Source: an uncultured Thermoplasmata archaeon | GTDB taxonomy: Archaea; Thermoplasmatota; Thermoplasmata; Halarchaeoplasmatales; Halarchaeoplasmataceae | Length of the DNA stretch: 10,169 bases | Assembly (NCBI GenBank): GCA_964399335.1 | Contig: CAYNQI010000032.1 | Span: 1 to 10,169 of the forward strand | Direction of reading: 5' to 3' | Part shown: positions 3-8,538 of the stretch, piece by piece | Position numbering within the stretch: position 1 is the stretch's first letter | How the letters are laid out: every line of letters starts with the position of its first letter | The notes under the pieces: model-generated | Told to the model about the DNA's origin: nothing | The model's database searches: none | What the model saw: the letters and a program-made list of their open reading frames with translations, nothing else | Translations under genes and position numbers: made by a program

Positions 3-956
3 AATGGATACACTTCTTTAGACAAACTTAAACAAGCAACTGTAGAAAACATTTCAAATATAAGAGGTTTCAAAAGAAGTTTGGCTAGAAGAATAGTACA
101 GACCATGAAAGAAAAAGGTGACAAACTCAAAAAAGGAGAAATTAAAAAAGAGCAGTTGAAATCAGGTTTAGCAAGAGAAAAGAAAAGATTCATCGGGGAA
201 TTACAAAAGATATCTGGTATGGGCAAATCCATCGCTGAGCGTATTACAAAAAAGGACTATCATTCTTTTGAGGATATAGCTGAAACATCAGTTAAAAATT
301 TGATGGAAATAAGATACATGAAAGAGGACACGGCGGAGAGGCTAATAGATTACTCAAAGAAAAAACATGCTCCTGAAATAAAAAAAGAAGATCTTAAAAC
401 AAAGGAACCAAAAGAAAGTTTGGAAATGAAAGAAAAAGAAACCGTTAAAGAAAAACATGAGAAAGAAGATGAAAAGAAAGAATTGTCAAGAGAATTACCC
501 GAAGGTATCAATAAAAGTTCATCTTACATGATGATTAATAAAAACATCGATAATAGTTTAAAATTGTTTAGAAAAATAGTAGATACTGGTATGACTAGTA
601 TGTGCATTACTAGAGAGTACCCAGAAAAAATAAGAAACAATTACGATCTAGAAGACAGTTCTATACTATGGCTATCTAATGTGGATAAAGAGAATGCTAT
701 GAGGCCAAAAAATCTTGATAAATTACAACTAGAATTAGAAAAATTCCTTGAGTCTGGAAATTGTGTGATTCTTTTAAGCGGCATCGAATATCTTATAATC
801 AATAACGATTTCAGAAAAGTACTCCATCTTTTACAATCTTTAAAAGATCTATCCGCAATGTCAGAATCAATATTATTGGTACAAATAGATTCTCAGGAAC
901 TCGATGATTATCAATTAGATCTTCTTAAAAAGGAAATGGATGATATTCTTACTTGA
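3..956 (+). CDS. Multi helix-hairpin-helix (RadA N-terminal-like) protein with C-terminal DUF835 (inactivated KaiC/RecA-like) domain; 5'-truncated by the window edge
   Basis: The frame is open from base 3 (NGYTSLDKLKQATVENISNIRGFKRSLARRIV), so the TTG at 81 in the ORF track is probably internal. A complete (HhH)2-like unit follows (ELQKISGMGKSIAERITKKDYHSFEDIAETSVKNLMEIRYMKEDTAERLIDY, ~198-356), then a K/E-rich linker (~357-500). DUF835-like motifs occupy ~513-953: CITREYPEKI, ILWLSN, RPKNLDKL, VILLSGIEYLIINNDF. Domain calls are by motif recognition only. Confidence 0.75.
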   Translation, partial: NGYTSLDKLKQATVENISNIRGFKRSLARRIVQTMKEKGDKLKKGEIKKEQLKSGLAREKKRFIGELQKISGMGKSIAERITKKDYHSFEDIAETSVKNLMEIRYMKEDTAERLIDYSKKKHAPEIKKEDLKTKEPKESLEMKEKETVKEKHEKEDEKKELSRELPEGINKSSSYMMINKNIDNSLKLFRKIVDTGMTSMCITREYPEKIRNNYDLEDSSILWLSNVDKENAMRPKNLDKLQLELEKFLESGNCVILLSGIEYLIINNDFRKVLHLLQSLKDLSAMSESILLVQIDSQELDDYQLDLLKKEMDDILT

Positions 957-1003: not shown

Positions 1004-1909
1004 ATGAAGATCGGTATTGTTGGACCAGGGTCCCTAGGTACATTTCTTGCAGGGAAGATAGGAAAAGTGAATCAAGTTGTATTATATGGTAGAAAAGACT
1101 TGTCTTTAAAACAAGTGGTAATTTCTGGAGAGACTCAACTTAAAACAGACATTAAATATACAACTGATCCCACTTCACTTTCCGATTTGGAGTATGTTAT
1201 TATCTGTACTAAATCCTTTCAAACTGAACAGGTGATGAAAGATACACATGAATATTTGAGTGACAAAACAATGATTGTTTCTCTTCAAAATGGTTTAAAG
1301 AATGAAAAAATAATTTCAAAGTTTGTGGGTAAGGATCGGGTGATTGGAGGTATCACGGAAAATGGAATTACCTTCGAAAGGTATGGCAAAGTGATTCATG
1401 CGGGTAAAGGAGAAACGATAATAGGGCCATATGGAGATGATTTTACAAACGAAGTCAAAGAATTCTCTCAAATTTTGAATGATTCGAGTATTGCCAACAA
1501 AGTATCGGATAACATATATGGGCACATATGGAAAAAGGTCATCATAAATGCAGGTATCAATCCTATCACTGCTTTAAGTGGCTTGAAAAATGGATCTATT
1601 ATTGATGACAAAAATCTATTTTCGTTGATGGAATATATATGTGAAGAATCAGTAAAAGTCGCAGAAAATGAAGTTGTTTTACCAGGGGATGATCCTTTCA
1701 AGGAGGCTGTAAAGGTTGCCAAGAACACCAGTGAGAATAAATCTAGTATGCTTCAGGATGTTGAAAATAAAAGAAAGACCGAGATAGATTGTATTAGCGG
1801 AGCGATTGTAAGTGTTGGAACTAAACATGGAGTAAATACTCCTTACAATAGGACAATGGTATATTTAATAAAAAGTTTAGAAAATTCGTATCTAAATAAT
1901 TCTGATTAG
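1004..1909 (+). CDS. panE: 2-dehydropantoate 2-reductase (ketopantoate reductase, PanE/ApbA family)
   Basis: Rossmann start MKIGIVGPGSLG and family motifs CTKS, SLQNGL, WKKVIINAGINPITAL, SSMLQD, TEIDCISGAIV. Start moved from the track's 953 to ATG 1004 because the fold begins there and the TATA spacing fits. Confidence 0.93.
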   Translation: MKIGIVGPGSLGTFLAGKIGKVNQVVLYGRKDLSLKQVVISGETQLKTDIKYTTDPTSLSDLEYVIICTKSFQTEQVMKDTHEYLSDKTMIVSLQNGLKNEKIISKFVGKDRVIGGITENGITFERYGKVIHAGKGETIIGPYGDDFTNEVKEFSQILNDSSIANKVSDNIYGHIWKKVIINAGINPITALSGLKNGSIIDDKNLFSLMEYICEESVKVAENEVVLPGDDPFKEAVKVAKNTSENKSSMLQDVENKRKTEIDCISGAIVSVGTKHGVNTPYNRTMVYLIKSLENSYLNNSD

Positions 1910-3100
1910 CTCAGCTTCTAAATAAATATCTTTAGCATTAACGATATCGACTTCAACCCTTTTGCCAATAAGAGAACAATCTTCTTCGTTTAAAACCACT
2001 ACCTTATAATTATCTGTTCTTCCCTTTAAAGAATCTCCCTTTCCTTCTTCTAAAATAGTTACTTGCATACGTCTACCTACATATCTCTTATTCCTGTCAC
2101 GACTGATTTTAAATCTCAGTTCAGTAAGTTCTTTTGAACGTTTTTTCTTTATTCTAGAATGGATCTTGTTAATTTTGTTTATAGCTTCTGTCCCAGGTCT
2201 AGGGCTGAAACGAGTTACGTTGATAATGTCCGGCTTTGCATCTCTGATAATTTCCAATGTTTTATCAAAAGCATCTTCTTCTTCTCCTGGGAAACCAGCT
2301 ATTATATCTGTTGAGAGGGTCAAATCAGGGAATTTCTGCCTGATCCCCTTTACTAATTTTATCCAGTCTTCAGGTGTATACCGTCTATTCATATCTTTTA
2401 GAACCTGTTCTGAACCAGACTGTAGAGGAATGTGAAGAAATTTGTAAATCCTTTCATGGTTCAATATATTCTTGATCTCTTCTTTGATGGGTATAGCTGT
2501 GTCTGGGTTCATCATCCCTATCCTTATTCTAAACTCTTTATCTATTTCTAGAAGTTTGTGAATCAATTCAGGAAGAGAACTGTTTATATCTTTACCATAC
2601 GAAGCCGTATCTTGACAAGTGATTTGAATCTCCCATGCTGATGATTTTACTAATTCTTCAAACCTACATTTTATATCATCAGGCTCTCGACTGTTTAGAG
2701 GACCTCTTGCAATTTTCGTGATACAATATGAACAATCACCTAGACAACCACTCGCTATTGGTAAAACGCCTACTAGACCCTTTTTTGGACAAACTGAGAG
2801 GGAGATATCGTTAGGAACTACTTTCTCAATATTATCAGAGATTACATCAAGTTCGCCATTATTTATCGAGGTTAAACAGCCAGTTACCATAACTTTAGAA
2901 CATTTTTCACTTAACTCTTTAATCCTCCTTTTCATCCTCTCCTCTGTTTTTGAGATGACAACGCAAGTTCCTATGACCGCCATATCTGCATATTCCGGAT
3001 TGTCTACCTGTACATGGCCTTGACTGTTCAAATTCTCTGCGAACATTTGGGTTTCCCCTTGATTCATTGTGCAGCCATAGGCTTCTAGATAATACTTCAT
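1892..3100 (-). CDS. mtaB: tRNA t6A37 methylthiotransferase, archaeal MtaB/MiaB-like radical SAM enzyme
   Basis: UPF0004 domain with three Cys (YGCTMN, GTCVV, VTGCL), radical SAM CxxxCxxC (GCLGDCSYC), motifs QDTASYG, RIGMMNP, HIPLQSGS, TDIIAGFPGE, RFSPRPGT, and a C-terminal TRAM domain. GCLGxCSYC and RIGMMNP match the archaeal/eukaryal MtaB clade rather than MiaB or RimO. Confidence 0.9.
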   Translation of the reverse strand: MKYYLEAYGCTMNQGETQMFAENLNSQGHVQVDNPEYADMAVIGTCVVISKTEERMKRRIKELSEKCSKVMVTGCLTSINNGELDVISDNIEKVVPNDISLSVCPKKGLVGVLPIASGCLGDCSYCITKIARGPLNSREPDDIKCRFEELVKSSAWEIQITCQDTASYGKDINSSLPELIHKLLEIDKEFRIRIGMMNPDTAIPIKEEIKNILNHERIYKFLHIPLQSGSEQVLKDMNRRYTPEDWIKLVKGIRQKFPDLTLSTDIIAGFPGEEEDAFDKTLEIIRDAKPDIINVTRFSPRPGTEAINKINKIHSRIKKKRSKELTELRFKISRDRNKRYVGRRMQVTILEEGKGDSLKGRTDNYKVVVLNEEDCSLIGKRVEVDIVNAKDIYLEAELIRII

Positions 3101-4781: not shown

Positions 4782-5078
4782 TTAGTCTTTTTTGGATTGG
4801 AGTCGATATAGTAAAAATTTTAGTGCAACTGAACTACCAGATTTTAGGAGTAGGGAATAAGCTGAATACTCTTTAATTTTTGCTTCGATGTACAGAGAAA
4901 TAGCCTTTCGAATATCTTCTATACTACTTTCATCCCCCATATCCAATTTTTTGAAGGTTTTACTTCCCAATTCTTCCTTGATTATCTCTAATATGTATCC
5001 TTTCATCATGTCATTTGTTTCAAAATAATCACTGAGTTCAACCAATCCCTTGTGTTCTTCTTCTGGTTCTTCAACCAT
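4782..5078 (-). CDS. Hypothetical protein (~98 aa, probably helical)
   Basis: ORF fills the gap between MATE and tusA and has protein-like composition. ATG 5078 (MVEEPEEE) is preferred over 5090 because a TATA box lies 24-31 nt upstream. No family recognised. Confidence 0.6.
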   Translation of the reverse strand: MVEEPEEEHKGLVELSDYFETNDMMKGYILEIIKEELGSKTFKKLDMGDESSIEDIRKAISLYIEAKIKEYSAYSLLLKSGSSVALKFLLYRLQSKKD

Positions 5079-5101
5079 GTTAAATAACATAGTGTTGAAG
5101 G

Positions 5102-5117
5102 TATAAATATATGTTTT
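5102..5117 (-). promoter_or_regulatory. Putative TATA/BRE for the leaderless orphan gene
   Basis: The minus strand reads AAAACATA-TATTTATA. The TATA element at 5102-5109 is at leaderless spacing from ATG 5078. Confidence 0.45.
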
Positions 5118-5149
5118 GAAAGCTATACCAAAACATTAATGTATTAACA

Positions 5150-5170
5150 AATCAAGTATATTATATTAAC
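5150..5170 (+). promoter_or_regulatory. Candidate TATA region for the tusA-dsrE-iscS-iscU-nitrilase operon
   Basis: AAATCAAG-TATATTATATTAAC lies upstream of an SD-led ATG at 5217. The exact box is ambiguous in AT-rich DNA. Confidence 0.3.
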
Positions 5171-5216
5171 CAAATTCAAATGAATATCAAAATTTAAAAT
5201 GTCTGGAGAGATTAAA

Positions 5217-5450
5217 ATGGCAGAAAGAAAAATAAACGTGAAGGGTGAAACTTGTCCGGTTCCATTGGTCGAAACTAGAAAGGCAGTTAGAACGGCTGAG
5301 CCTGGAGATGTTCTCATAATTCAAGGGGATCATCCTCCATCAAAAGATGAAATACCCATGGCAGTGGACGCTTTAGGTTTAGAACTTTTAGGTATCGAGG
5401 AAGACGGTAAAAACTGGACTATAAAGATCAAAATTCCAGCGGAGGTATGA
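5217..5450 (+). CDS. tusA: TusA/SirA family sulfur carrier protein
   Basis: Motif KGETCPVP (CPxP, Cys codon 5253-5255), TusA-like size (77 aa) and pattern (PGDVLIIQGD...WTIKIK). GGAG at 5205-5208 supports ATG 5217 over 5199. Confidence 0.88.
   Translation: MAERKINVKGETCPVPLVETRKAVRTAEPGDVLIIQGDHPPSKDEIPMAVDALGLELLGIEEDGKNWTIKIKIPAEV
5441..5446 (+). promoter_or_regulatory. Shine-Dalgarno site for the DsrE-like gene
   Basis: GGAGGT, 6 nt before TTG 5453 and abutting ATG 5447. Confidence 0.6.
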
Positions 5451-5872
5451 TATTGACCGGAAAAACTACCCTTATAGTTCAAAGTGGTGACCACGATAAA
5501 GTTTACAGTGCATTCATAATAGGAAATGGTGCACTTTCCATGGGCATGGAGGTTTCGATGTATTTTACATTCTGGGGACTTGAAAGATTGAAGAAAGGAA
5601 AATTAGACAAGGGTCCTCTTTCGAAGATGAATTTTCTTGGATTAGGCAAATGGATAATGAAAAGAAAGATGAATCAATCTAATGTGAGAGATTTAGAAAA
5701 CATGATGGAAGACTTCGTCGAATTGGGTGGCAAGATTTTAGCTTGCGATATGACAATGGAGATAATGGGTGTAGAAAAGAAAGATTTAAGGGATGAGGTT
5801 ATTTCCGATTACTGCGCTGTCGGTACATATATTAAAGAGGCGAAAGAATCTGATATAACACTGTTCATATGA
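5447..5872 (+). CDS. DsrE/DsrF/DsrH-like family protein (DsrE2/YrkE-type sulfur carrier)
   Basis: Motifs LIVQSGDHDK, ALSMGMEVSMYFTFWGL, LSKMNFLGLG, KILACDMTMEIMG, C-terminal TLFI. ATGA overlap with the tusA stop. GGAGGT at 5441-5446 suggests the true start may be TTG 5453. Confidence 0.85.
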   Translation: MILTGKTTLIVQSGDHDKVYSAFIIGNGALSMGMEVSMYFTFWGLERLKKGKLDKGPLSKMNFLGLGKWIMKRKMNQSNVRDLENMMEDFVELGGKILACDMTMEIMGVEKKDLRDEVISDYCAVGTYIKEAKESDITLFI

Positions 5873-5876
5873 GGTG
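5871..5876 (+). promoter_or_regulatory. Shine-Dalgarno site for the IscS-like gene
   Basis: GAGGTG overlaps the dsrE stop codon and lies 6 nt before ATG 5883. Confidence 0.65.
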
Positions 5877-5882
5877 CAAAAA

Positions 5883-7049
5883 ATGATGGAAGAAACAGTA
5901 TATCTGGATAACAGTTCAAGCACAAAGATGGATGAGAGGGTTTTAGAAGCAATGAAACCTTACTTGTTCGAGAAATATGCAGTAGCAAGTTCTGAATTCG
6001 GATATTCTCTTGGAATAAAAGCAAAAGAGGGGTTGGAAGATGCAAGAAGTACTATAGCAGATAATATTGGAGCCAACCCTGAAGAGATCATATTTACTTC
6101 TTGTGGGACAGAAGCAAGCAATCTAGCTTTGAAAGGTGTAGCTAAAAAACTATCTGAAGATAAAAATCACATAATAACTAGTAAAATAGAGGATTTTCCC
6201 GTCCTAAAAAGTGCCCAAAGATTAGAAAAAGAGGGTTACGAAATTACGTTTCTCGAAGTAGATGATGAAGGTTTTGTAGATGTGGACAAATTGGAAGAGG
6301 CTATCGATGATAAAACTGGACTGGTATCTATACAGCACGGGAACCAAGAGATCGGAACAGTTCAAGATATCGAGGAAATCAGTAAAATATGTGATCAAAA
6401 TGATGTTCTATTTCACACCGATGCAACCCATACCTTCACAAAGCTACCCATGGATGTTAGTAAAACTCCTATAGATTTGATGACATTATCAGCACACACG
6501 ATTCATGGTCCAAAAGGGATCGGAGCGCTTTATGTAAGGGATGGGACTGATCTAGAAAAATTGATGGACGGTGGTTTTCAGGAGAATAATCGTAGAGCGG
6601 GTGTCGAAAATATCCCTGGTGCCGTTGGGTTCGCAAAAGCTATTGAATTAGTGACTGAAGATGAGAATGAGAAGCTAAAAGAGATGAGAGACTCTTTAAT
6701 AAAGAAAATTCAGGACAATATTCCTGATACAACTTTAAACGGACCTGCAAAGGATAGAACACCACATAACGCAAATATCACATTCCATTACGTAGAAGGT
6801 GAATCTATAACACTCCATATGGATATGAGAGGTTTTTCCGTAAGCACCGGTTCTGCCTGTTTCAGCAAGTCTTTAGAAGCTAGTCATGTAATAATGGGGA
6901 TCGGTGGGGACCATGAAAGAGCTCACGGTTCAGTTAGATTTAGCTTTGGAAGATATAATACCATGGAAGATGTTGATAGAACCGTAGAAGCTATAAGTGA
7001 AGTTGTTAAAAGGTTAAGAGAGATAAGTCCGTTAGGAAAAGATAAATAG
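5883..7049 (+). CDS. iscS: IscS/NifS (group I cysteine desulfurase)-like protein, predicted catalytically inactive as a desulfurase
   Basis: Full-length collinearity with IscS: VYLDNS, EIIFTSCGTEASN, HIITSK, EIGTVQD, FHTDAT, GPKGIGALYVR, YVEGES, STGSAC, GSVRFSFGRY, LREISPL. The Schiff-base Lys is Thr (SAHTIHGPKG, ACG at 6498-6500). The loop Cys is retained (TGT 6858-6860). Confidence 0.9.
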   Translation: MMEETVYLDNSSSTKMDERVLEAMKPYLFEKYAVASSEFGYSLGIKAKEGLEDARSTIADNIGANPEEIIFTSCGTEASNLALKGVAKKLSEDKNHIITSKIEDFPVLKSAQRLEKEGYEITFLEVDDEGFVDVDKLEEAIDDKTGLVSIQHGNQEIGTVQDIEEISKICDQNDVLFHTDATHTFTKLPMDVSKTPIDLMTLSAHTIHGPKGIGALYVRDGTDLEKLMDGGFQENNRRAGVENIPGAVGFAKAIELVTEDENEKLKEMRDSLIKKIQDNIPDTTLNGPAKDRTPHNANITFHYVEGESITLHMDMRGFSVSTGSACFSKSLEASHVIMGIGGDHERAHGSVRFSFGRYNTMEDVDRTVEAISEVVKRLREISPLGKDK

Positions 7050-7059
7050 ATTGATGATA

Positions 7060-7065
7060 GGAGGT
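7060..7065 (+). promoter_or_regulatory. Shine-Dalgarno site for iscU
   Basis: GGAGGT, 6 nt before ATG 7072. Confidence 0.7.
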
Positions 7066-7071
7066 AAGAAT

Positions 7072-7713
7072 ATGGCAGATTTACCATATACAGAAAAAGT
7101 AATCGAATACTTCAAAAATCCTAAAAATGTTGGAAAGATAGAAGATGCAGACGGTAAGGCAAAAGAGGGGAGCCCAGCTTGCGGGGATATGGTTTCAGTC
7201 TACATAAAGGTAGATGATGAAACTAAAGAGATCACGGATATAAAGTTTGAGTCCTATGGCTGCGCTTCGAACATAGCAACCGGCTCGATAATCACGGAGA
7301 TGGCAAAAGGTAAAACAATAGATGAGGCAAAAAATATCACGTGGAATGACGCTGCTGAAGAATTAGGCGGATTACCTAAGATGAAAACACATTGCTCCGT
7401 TTTGGCCGTTGAGGGATTACAGGCAGCGATAGCTGATTACGAGGAAAAGCACGGTCTTGTGAAGGAGCAAAAACCTACTACCGAAGAGATCGTAGAAAAA
7501 AGACTCAGACATGTGATGAATCCCATGACAGGTCTAGATGTGGTCCGGACAGACCTTATCAATGATATAAACGTAAAGGATGGAGTCATCTCACTAAAAG
7601 TTGATCTTGTCGAGGATCATCAATTCGCTAACGCCATCAAAGAAGATATCATGGAGAAGTTGGAGCATCTCTGGGATATAGATGAGATCAAAATAAAGTT
7701 CGTTGAAGATTGA
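7072..7713 (+). CDS. iscU: Fe-S cluster scaffold IscU/NifU-N fused to a C-terminal degenerate DUF59 (SufT/MIP18-like) domain
   Basis: YTEKVIEYFKNPKNVG, SPACGD, SYGCASNIA and GGLPKMKTHCSVLA give three Cys (7180, 7261, 7393) plus the conserved Asp, Lys and His. The extra ~78-aa C-terminus (7477-7710) follows the DUF59 pattern (LRHVMNPMTGLDVV...INDINVKDGVISLKVDL). Confidence 0.88.
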   Translation: MADLPYTEKVIEYFKNPKNVGKIEDADGKAKEGSPACGDMVSVYIKVDDETKEITDIKFESYGCASNIATGSIITEMAKGKTIDEAKNITWNDAAEELGGLPKMKTHCSVLAVEGLQAAIADYEEKHGLVKEQKPTTEEIVEKRLRHVMNPMTGLDVVRTDLINDINVKDGVISLKVDLVEDHQFANAIKEDIMEKLEHLWDIDEIKIKFVED

Positions 7714-7728
7714 TTGGATGTGTGTGAG

Positions 7729-8538
7729 ATGAAAGTTTCTTTAGTACAAAGAAAGCATGTTTTAGGAGATAAGGAAGCGAACTTAGGTATTATCAAAGAT
7801 ACGGTTAAACAAAATGACAGTGACCTATACATATTCCCGGAACTATTTCTAACTGGTTACAGGCTAAGAGATAGATTATGGGATGAAGCTGAACACATAC
7901 CGGGTCCTTCTACGGATAAAATAGCTGAATTGGCTGAAGAAGAACAGACTTCGATCATATTTGGAATGCCGGAAAAGATAGGTAGGAGTGGGAGATTGAA
8001 AAACTCATCGGTTTTAATAAATCCAGAAGGAGATATAGAGGTATATAGAAAAACATACCTACCTAACTTTGGCCCTTTCGAAGAGATGAGATATTTTGGA
8101 CCGGATGATGAGATACCTGTCTTCGATACTCAGTTCGGTAAGTTAGGCATGGTTATATGCTACGATATTTTCTTCCCTGAACTGACCAAAGCTATGGCTT
8201 TAAAAGGAGCTGATTTTATAGTTTGTATATCTGCATCTCCATCTATAAGTAAAAAGTTCTTCGAAACTGTTTTACCAGCTAGAGCTATTGAAACTACTGC
8301 TTTCATATTCTACGCAAATCTACTAGGTAGAGAGGAAAATTTCACATTCTGGGGCGGAAACAGGTTAATATCGCCGACAGGTTTGGAAGTAGCAAAGGGA
8401 CCGATCTACGAGGAAGACGTATTGACGGTGGAAATTGACCTTGAAGATCTTGATAGAGCAAGAAAAGGAAGACCAGTGTTGAATGATACCAGAGCCGAAG
8501 TGATGTATGCTTCAGCTGACTCAATATTTATCGATTAG
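7729..8538 (+). CDS. Carbon-nitrogen hydrolase (nitrilase superfamily)
   Basis: Intact Glu-Lys-Cys triad: IFPELF, YRKTYL, ICYDIFFPE. Also KGADFI, RAIE, FWGGNRLISPTG. ATG 7729 gives the typical start MKVSLVQ. Confidence 0.9.
   Translation: MKVSLVQRKHVLGDKEANLGIIKDTVKQNDSDLYIFPELFLTGYRLRDRLWDEAEHIPGPSTDKIAELAEEEQTSIIFGMPEKIGRSGRLKNSSVLINPEGDIEVYRKTYLPNFGPFEEMRYFGPDDEIPVFDTQFGKLGMVICYDIFFPELTKAMALKGADFIVCISASPSISKKFFETVLPARAIETTAFIFYANLLGREENFTFWGGNRLISPTGLEVAKGPIYEEDVLTVEIDLEDLDRARKGRPVLNDTRAEVMYASADSIFID

Follow-up and report, generated by a model that had tools for sequence, protein, structure and literature searches.

Where anaerobes without a working cysteine desulfurase obtain the sulfur of their iron-sulfur (Fe-S) clusters is the question raised by a gene cluster in a 10,169-nucleotide stretch of archaeal DNA (hereafter, the window), which is contig C32 of a 1.57-Mb, ~80% complete metagenome-assembled genome (MAG) whose nearest named relatives are Thermoplasmata and ‘Candidatus Saliniplasma’ genomes. 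The cluster encodes, in this order, a TusA-family sulfur carrier, a soluble DsrE2B-like protein, a homologue of the type I cysteine desulfurase IscS without the catalytic lysine (hereafter, IscS*), and the scaffold protein IscU fused to a DUF59 domain. We posit, from sequence comparisons, that tusA-dsrE2-iscS*-iscU::DUF59 is probably a relay-fed, non-catalytic IscS-IscU assembly unit for Fe-S clusters. Such a unit would offer a testable route for sulfur into these clusters, and it bears on the purpose of the ‘dead’ IscS in Archaeoglobus fulgidus and Methanosarcina, as it points to TusA and a DsrE-family protein as candidates for the missing partners. Both stand beside lysine-less IscS in two independently derived clades, also in A. 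fulgidus, the organism of the solved lysine-less IscS structure.

A conserved four-gene cassette

The cassette lies on the + strand and opens with the gene of the 77-amino-acid TusA-family carrier (5217–5450; PF01206, 66.7 bits against a cut-off of 28.6), whose Cys13, in a CPVP motif, is encoded at 5253–5255. This gene overlaps by 4 nt (ATGA) that of the 141-amino-acid DsrE2B-like protein (5447–5872, +; PF13686, 127 bits), with Cys100 in an ACDM motif (codon 5744–5746). After a gap of 10 nt follows the gene of the 388-amino-acid IscS* (5883–7049, +; PF00266, 265 bits; loop Cys326 at 6858–6860) and, 22 nt further on, that of the 213-amino-acid IscU::DUF59 (7072–7713, +; PF01592, 154 bits, and PF01883, 41.6 bits). 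A carbon-nitrogen hydrolase of the nitrilase superfamily (7729–8538, +, alternative start 7714; PF00795, 171 bits) begins 0 or 15 nt beyond iscU, depending on the choice of start codon. The first-pass annotation of this DNA had described five co-oriented genes with a 4-nt overlap, and strand, place and spacing agree with that description. It had also assigned Shine-Dalgarno sites to four genes: GGAG-, GGAGGT- or GAGGTG-type ribosome-binding sites do precede tusA, dsrE2, the iscS homologue and iscU, and that of the hydrolase is weak, with the caveat that the dsrE2 site abuts its ATG, such that dsrE2 may in truth start at an in-frame TTG at 5453.

A scan of one genome per prokaryotic species for IscS of the window's kind (T-type), chosen by sequence patterns typical of it, returned 80 loci, and upstream genes were counted in the 74 with at least 1.2 kb of upstream sequence. 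TusA and DsrE2 both stand beside the T-type IscS in 68 of these 74 loci, with TusA only in two others, while IscU lies 3' of IscS* in 79 of the 80 and is fused to DUF59 in 78, bearing out the expectation that tusA, dsrE2 and iscU-DUF59 would be found near lysine-less IscS. Similarly, each of the five T-type IscS genes encountered in 251 sampled genomes of the window's phylum adjoins a PF13686 gene. The T-type cassette is common to many oxygen-avoiding microbes, both archaea and anaerobic bacteria: the hosts of the 80 loci are Methanobacteriota (36), Thermoplasmatota (15), Hadarchaeota (2) and ~26 bacterial genomes, including Chloroflexota, Bacillota and Thermodesulfobacteriota. As judged by this linkage, the four genes are conserved together far beyond chance. 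No further universal neighbor was found in the 80 loci; HIT, MFS, metallophosphoesterase, DUF2284 and CARDB genes recur in subsets, in at most 15 of 80 and mostly in methanogen loci. The carbon-nitrogen hydrolase adjoins the cassette in only three of the 80, those of the nearest relatives, and was rejected as a fifth member. Hence, from the five-gene system first proposed, tusA, dsrE2, iscS* and iscU::DUF59 are retained as the conserved unit and the hydrolase is not.

An IscS fold without its lysine

The fold of IscS* is established by sequence matches to IscS and NifS chains of the PDB, which run the full length (residues 4–385) with E-values of 1e-98 to 1e-100, and the loop cysteine of the SxGSAC motif is in place. 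Other hallmarks of the family are missing, namely the S-x-H-K lysine, His104, Gln183 and the partner-subunit threonine, with D104, H183 and V241 at the last three positions, and the protein misses the NCBIfam equivalog cut-offs for NifS (463.7 vs 530.75 bits) and IscS (402.1 vs 548). Specifically, it reads SAHTIHGPKG, with T206 (ACG, 6498–6500) where IscS has the lysine of S[AG]HK, and IEDF, with D104 (6192–6194) where IscS has EH; its substitutions are G33A, N34V, H104D, N155Q, Q183H, K206T and T241V, and it keeps Cys326 (STGSAC) and R352 as well as D180, N154, T76, S203 and H205. Position 241 is that of the threonine that binds the phosphate of pyridoxal 5'-phosphate (PLP) from the partner subunit. 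The view that the IscS homologue had lost its PLP-chemistry residues (K206T, H104D, Q183H) with the loop cysteine intact is therefore upheld.

These features are not peculiar to the window. Among the 120 closest database homologues, which come from Thermoplasmatota, Korarchaeota, Asgard archaea, Theionarchaea, Methanofastidiosa and Methanosarcinales, D104 and Cys326 are found in all 120 and H183 in 119, and position 206 is Thr in 115, Ile in four, Asn in one and Lys in none. Lysine-bearing relatives have His104 in 136 of 137, Gln183 in 133 of 137 and Thr241 in 134 of 137, and a wider comparison added G33A, N34V, N155Q and T241V/L as clade-specific changes. Ordinary PLP chemistry is implausible for a protein with these residues. 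The former cofactor pocket was changed at seven positions (A33, V34, D104, Q155, H183, T206, V241) and then held constant, and this constancy points to selection for a new role rather than mere loss.

The sulfur carriers and the scaffold

The window TusA has both the PF01206 domain, above cut-off, and the CPxP cysteine, and lies below the NCBIfam equivalog cut-offs for TusA, YedF and YeeD, its best match being YedF (39.5 bits vs a cut-off of 79). The carrier cysteines noted at first pass, Cys13 of TusA and Cys100 of the DsrE protein, are both present in the window, and each is kept in 72 of 72 T-type cassettes and in 15 of 15 cassettes of the D-type group described below. The DsrE protein matches PDB entries 2QS7 (E 1.9e-17 over residues 6–141) and 3PNX (E 5.7e-18); with its domain, its active-site cysteine and its similarity to the soluble trimer 2QS7, it belongs to the DsrE/DsrF/DrsH-like family PF13686 and is, by these matches, a soluble relative closest to DsrE2B. 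The original label DsrE2 was right as to the family and too specific beyond it, as the NCBIfam DsrE2 equivalog (NF047629) scores 66.2 bits against a cut-off of 210, with only the C-terminal half aligned.

IscU, a member of PF01592 although below the NCBIfam equivalog cut-offs (best 156.3 vs 187.9 bits), retains all of its ligands as had been claimed (Cys37, Asp39, Cys64, His107 and Cys108), and the cysteines are kept in nearly all related cassettes. Its C-terminal domain (residues 140–207) belongs to the DUF59/FeS_assembly_P family (PF01883, 41.6 bits vs a cut-off of 23.5) and contains no cysteine.

A second lysine-less clade with the same neighbors

A second group (D-type, or A. fulgidus type, with Lys replaced by Asp) is 40–44% identical to the window IscS* and adjoins weak DsrE matches. 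We compared 35 regions in Thermoplasmatota, comprising DsrE-adjacent IscS-like genes and controls. In the 23 D-type proteins among them, SSND or something close to it stands in place of the lysine motif. Upstream of each of the 23 lies a small DsrE-like gene and upstream of 22 also TusA, the one exception being truncated at a contig end, and nearly all are followed by IscU. A. fulgidus IscS2 belongs to this group: its structure 4EB5, which reads SSNDIYGPKG, is the top PDB match of a D-type member. In Halobacteriota, sampled as 301 genomes of the phylum around Methanosarcina, none of the 30 best matches has the lysine, and DsrE-like genes lie upstream of 28 and TusA of 27 of these 30. The A. 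fulgidus genome encodes a protein identical to 4EB5 over all 382 residues but for one mismatch, and its two loci are organized as TusA - DsrE-like - IscS1 - IscU1 and DsrE-like - IscS2 - IscU2. No lysine-bearing desulfurase was found in this genome, where the two lysine-less IscS are the only desulfurase-family proteins; weaker PF00266 matches are an aminotransferase, an MfnA-type decarboxylase and two SepCysS. In one D-type genome, 93% complete, no other desulfurase-like gene was found either. TusA plus DsrE upstream were seen in none of 19 lysine-bearing IscS controls, a modest set made up of 17 from the same Thermoplasmatota genomes and two representatives sister to the T-type clade.

Evolutionarily, a FastTree phylogeny of 169 type I desulfurase sequences recovered the T-type clade with 99% support, nested in a 96%-support group of 23 rows of which 22 have no lysine, and the D-type as a separate clade with 95% support. 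Inactivation took different forms, H104D, Q183H, K206T and T241V/L with R352 kept in the T-type, and Q183A, H205N, K206D and R352V/Q with H104 and T241 kept in the D-type, and the window IscS*, with H205 and T206, falls outside the latter by both residues and clade. The separate clades and different substitutions fit two independent losses of the lysine, and lysine loss goes with TusA and DsrE neighbors in both, an association that is strong and not exclusive.

Several other arrangements were recorded along the way. Three TusA-like open reading frames (ORFs), two of them overlapping, precede DsrE-IscS*-IscU in one Halobacteriota genome (L203:376-1110), and in another genome (G544) a lysine-bearing IscS (SAHK; L214:3-707, - strand) lies divergent and directly beside a TusA-DsrE-IscS(ND)-IscU cassette. 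Several Thermoplasmatota genomes (among them G041, G105, G146, G193, G201 and G209) have a lysine-bearing IscS with no adjacent IscU and a D-type cassette that has one (L149-L156 vs L096-L110); the active IscS might feed the cassette through TusA. Near the A. fulgidus iscS1 cassette lie a further DsrE-family gene, 3' of iscU1 (L216:2569-3015, PF13686 44 bits; region G449:C1:160621-169760), and, ~3 kb away, a paralogue of SepCysS, an enzyme that also needs a persulfide donor. Representative P0130 is an IscS-IscU pair alone with the lysine kept and other pocket changes, the contig of P0255 is too short to judge carrier genes, and a 148-amino-acid ORF upstream of P0125 was rejected as DsrE (weak helix-turn-helix match). 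Ten longer representatives (of 150) included no DsrE::IscS fusion; the N-terminal extensions identified among them are Rrf2 (four), helix-turn-helix, TusA (on a lysine-bearing protein) and a Se/S-carrier domain, and lysine-bearing IscS are fused N-terminally to TusA, PF11823 Se/S-carrier or Rrf2 in P0223, P0215, P0141, P0159, P0172 and P0243. Finally, several D-type matches (among them G258:C35, G146:C26, G104:C136, G176:C1 and G172:C12) seemed to contain a single in-frame stop (TAG, TAA or TGA), which is probably the match overrunning the gene end, as the extracted ORFs are intact.

Other Fe-S and sulfur genes in the source genome and its genus

SufB/SmsB was detected in none of five genomes of the window's genus (two of them 93–95% complete), with a model that does detect SmsB in methanogen controls, and in only three of 17 genomes of the family. 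Since the cassette IscU is also the only NifU_N match in the source genome, the cassette is the only recognizable Fe-S scaffold there, and it looks like the sole recognizable scaffold system in the genus as a whole. If this is so, then it must be functional in these organisms.

Does the unit then dispense with cysteine, as the first-pass annotation had it? For the source genome this was not borne out. An intact SufS-family desulfurase, with HK and GGMHC motifs, is encoded on contig C93, and a CysK/M-type cysteine synthase is present, cut by a contig end, such that of the three things to look for elsewhere in the genome another desulfurase and cysteine biosynthesis were found and SufBC/SmsBC, searched as SufB/SmsB, was not. 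HK-motif SufS-family proteins also occur in all five other T-type genomes checked. Neither SufE nor a SufU or SufBC partner of SufS was found in the source genome, and the SufS-family gene (L001, G000:C93) stands beside ThyX and formate-tetrahydrofolate ligase genes with no suf gene nearby. A two-domain rhodanese is encoded on another contig than the cassette. Thus, cysteine may still be the ultimate sulfur source, with TusA or DsrE2 accepting sulfur from the orphan SufS.

A proposed sulfur relay in place of a desulfurase

In the mechanism that we favor, the step in which IscS takes sulfur from cysteine would be replaced by a protein-to-protein sulfur relay. TusA (through Cys13) and the DsrE2B-like protein (through Cys100) would carry sulfane sulfur as cysteine persulfides and pass it to the mobile-loop Cys326 of IscS*. 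The latter would sit in an (IscS-IscU)2 complex like that of A. fulgidus, give the sulfur to IscU and supply the fourth ligand of the nascent [2Fe-2S] cluster, and the IscU-fused DUF59 domain would help to move clusters to client proteins. In the source genome, the relay might be charged by the orphan SufS-family desulfurase or by inorganic sulfane sulfur, in the latter case perhaps with the two-domain rhodanese as intermediary. Observed are the identities of the genes, their residue states, their conserved linkage and the lack of other scaffold genes in the genus; the individual transfers, the direction in which they run and the origin of the sulfur are what we infer.

Part of this mechanism has precedent. 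The IscS cysteine of A. fulgidus ligates the [2Fe-2S] cluster on IscU (PMC7585200, PMC13066941), and the role of a lysine-less IscS as adaptor and cysteine-ligand donor is not new, having been published for A. fulgidus (work cited in PMC7585200 and PMC8918507). On its own, A. fulgidus iscS2-iscU2 did not complement E. coli, not even when Na2S was supplied (bioRxiv 10.1101/2024.03.20.586028), which is the outcome expected if partner proteins were missing. In a literature search that left most subscription journals outside its reach, we found no mention of the upstream tusA/dsrE genes in work on A. fulgidus IscS and no paper on a joint role of IscS-IscU and TusA or DsrE in building Fe-S clusters, in line with the first-pass impression that the combination is uncharacterized. 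A broader reading is tentative, and we hold it with less confidence than the mechanism itself: a TusA plus DsrE-family persulfide relay might be a general, desulfurase-independent third way to supply IscU-type scaffolds in anaerobes, recruited at least twice, each time with loss of IscS PLP chemistry, and the sole Fe-S route in some archaea, with the Asp/His-rich T-type pocket perhaps in a new role such as iron binding. The ‘sole route’ part of this reading derives from the lack of detectable SmsB/SufB in the window's genus and of a lysine-bearing desulfurase in A. fulgidus.

A number of observations weigh against the relay-fed unit. First, the evidence is gene linkage among related genomes, which are non-independent samples, several of them incomplete MAGs, and the source MAG itself is ~80% complete. 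Second, the linkage has exceptions: four of the 74 T-type loci have neither carrier gene, the lysine-less P0126, P0128 and P0132 have only a downstream TusA, in the order IscS*-IscU(-DUF59)-TusA, and the lysine-less P0169 and P0181 have IscU but no carrier gene, such that a relay is not obligatory for every lysine-less IscS. Conversely, a classical DsrE gene (PF02635) lies 3' of iscU, without TusA, in one lysine-bearing lineage (L111, L112), and strict exclusivity of DsrE to lysine-less IscS was rejected on this account. Third, the lysine-bearing TusA::IscS fusion (P0223) fits an outward flow from IscS to TusA, and gene adjacency alone thus leaves the direction of transfer unfixed. Fourth, the only DsrE2B assayed did not react with NaSH, GSSH, polysulfide, thiosulfate, tetrathionate or sulfite, nor was it loaded by TusA or DsrE3A (PMC4175335). 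Given that the sole assayed DsrE2B reacted with none of these six sulfur compounds, direct charging of the relay from sulfide, polysulfide or thiosulfate is a guess. Lastly, the T-type pocket has been kept constant instead of decaying, a hint that IscS* may do more than serve as an inert adaptor.

Alternative roles for the cassette

The last of these points leads to the best-surviving alternative, which we nevertheless consider unlikely: that T-type IscS* is still an enzyme, whose strictly conserved pocket (A33, V34, D104, F105, Q155, H183, T206) binds another cofactor, a metal or a substrate. It might, for instance, hold iron, or act on a persulfide or thiosulfonate that TusA or DsrE carries. 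This reading overlaps with the relay and differs in the catalytic role. The (near-)invariance of these seven positions in 120 homologues at 66–72% overall identity bespeaks purifying selection, the pocket residues D180, N154, T76, S203, H205 and R352 remain, and A. fulgidus IscS still binds pyridoxamine 5'-phosphate (PMC8918507). The Schiff-base lysine, the stacking histidine and the partner-subunit phosphate-binding Thr241 are all gone, though, and no activity of T-type IscS* has been reported; moreover, the D-type altered other residues yet keeps the same neighbors, which argues for a shared, non-catalytic role.

Slightly less likely still is that sulfur flows outward, or that the link is only regulatory, with TusA and DsrE serving tRNA/cofactor thiolation or general sulfur handling and IscS*-IscU receiving sulfide directly, as proposed for A. 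fulgidus. Sulfur does pass from IscS to TusA in E. coli, sulfide suffices for the SMS system (PMC13066941), and both the TusA::IscS fusion and the lysine-less pairs without carrier genes would accord with such a flow. Against this, an IscS without its lysine would have nothing to donate, the TusA/DsrE link tracks lysine loss in two clades and went unseen in the 19 lysine-bearing controls, and Na2S did not rescue the A. fulgidus iscS2U2 pair in E. coli (bioRxiv 10.1101/2024.03.20.586028).

Alternatively, the cassette could store, repair or sense clusters, IscS*-IscU::DUF59 holding a [2Fe-2S] cluster and the carriers re-sulfurating damaged ones. We regard this as improbable, even though the cluster in the A. 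fulgidus complex is stable, DUF59 proteins have a late role in maturation, and the Methanosarcina copy of the cassette, being accompanied by two more IscSU pairs and SMS, could be specialized (PMC7585200): no scaffold besides the cassette was found in the window's genus, where it must support de novo assembly. Selenium trafficking through TusA/YedF-like, DsrE-like and selenocysteine-lyase-like proteins is very improbable, as the YedF match of TusA lies far under its cut-off, IscU is an iron-sulfur scaffold, and no SelD above cut-off was found in the source genome or in the cassette-bearing control M. acetivorans (cassette per PMC7585200). That IscS* is a decaying pseudogene, or its threonine codon an assembly error one base from lysine (ACG vs AAG), is refuted by the intact frame, the absence of lysine at position 206 from all 120 homologues and a clade identity of 66–94% across two domains of life.

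Other features of the window

Upstream of tusA, the AT-rich intergenic region at 5091–5216 (+) is the presumed promoter region of tusA and is common to it and a divergent ORF of 102 amino acids (4782–5090, -). This ORF is acidic, has no Pfam or NCBIfam match, and is kept only in the three nearest relatives (L008-L010). Further away, 2 kb upstream of the cassette, lies a gene for a MiaB-type methylthiotransferase (UPF0004 + radical SAM + TRAM; 1892–3100, -), an Fe-S- and sulfur-dependent enzyme whose linkage to the cassette is not conserved. An ORF at 3–956 (+), open at its 5' end, has as its sole match a helix-hairpin-helix segment like the RadA N-terminus and the NusA C-terminal repeat.

Comparison with known systems

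Among the closest counterparts of the relay-fed unit proposed here is the isc1 cluster of Methanosarcina acetivorans, which comprises MA0811 (HIT), MA0810 (SirA-like), MA0809 (DrsE superfamily), MA0808 (IscS1), MA0807 (IscU1) and MA0806. The gene names stand in the Fig. S1 legend of PMC7585200, the main text of which gives MA0809 and MA0810 as of unknown function and reports that IscS1 has no PLP-binding residues and formed inclusion bodies; beyond that supplementary legend, our literature search found no study of the MA0807-MA0810 cassette. Like the window, the cluster has the order TusA, DsrE, IscS, IscU, an IscS1 in the T-type clade with an STGSACFS loop motif, and an IscU1 of 24 kDa, which implies the DUF59 fusion; the Methanosarcina loci of our own scan (L017, L052) show the cassette as well. 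Methanosarcina differs from the window's genus, where no other scaffold was found, in that two active IscSU pairs and SMS accompany the cassette, and the HIT and DUF2284 neighbors occur only in subsets of Methanosarcinales-type loci (15 and 11 of 80, respectively).

A. fulgidus IscS2-IscU (PDB 4EB5, 4EB7, 4HVK; D199K variant 4R5F) shares with the window a type I fold without the Schiff-base lysine and an upstream DsrE-like gene, with TusA in addition at the iscS1 locus. IscS2 has no desulfurase activity, and its loop cysteine ligates the [2Fe-2S] cluster on IscU. It differs from the window protein in its clade and in its substitutions (Q183A, H205N, K206D and R352V/Q, with H104 and T241 kept), and its partners differ too, IscU having no DUF59 and the DsrE-like protein being shorter (~120 amino acids).

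In its bare composition the locus resembles MIS (MisS-MisU; Garcia et al. 2022, as reviewed in PMC13066941), an IscS-like and IscU-like pair of anaerobic archaea without chaperones, ferredoxin or A-type carrier, and at the window locus, too, the adjacent IscS-like and IscU-like genes have no hscBA, fdx or iscA. Whereas MIS is defined with a cysteine desulfurase, the window IscS has no catalytic lysine and two sulfur-carrier genes are attached; because of the missing lysine, desulfurase activity, the defining trait of MisS, is unlikely for IscS*. A 2026 review describes MIS as the least studied Fe-S system, leaves its sulfur source open and makes no link to TusA or DsrE (PMC13066941).

The carriers themselves recall the rhd-tusA-dsrE2 and dsrE3A-dsrE2B-tusA relays of Allochromatium vinosum and Metallosphaera cuprina, in which TusA and a DsrE2-group protein, with conserved active-site cysteines, are likewise encoded side by side. 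Unlike in those relays of sulfur oxidizers, no rhodanese, dsr, hdr-like or lipoate-binding gene is linked to the cassette within the window (dsr/shdr were not searched genome-wide), the partner is an Fe-S scaffold rather than a sulfur-oxidizing enzyme, and the hosts are anaerobes with no evident sulfur-oxidation pathway (a pathway for which no genome-wide search was made). A close analogy for the transfer step is offered by E. coli IscS-TusA (PDB 3LVJ) and SufS-SufE/SufU, in which a small carrier exchanges a persulfide with the loop cysteine of a desulfurase-fold protein, as proposed for the window. In E. coli, the desulfurase is the donor; the window IscS*, predicted to be unable to draw a persulfide from cysteine, would have to be the acceptor.

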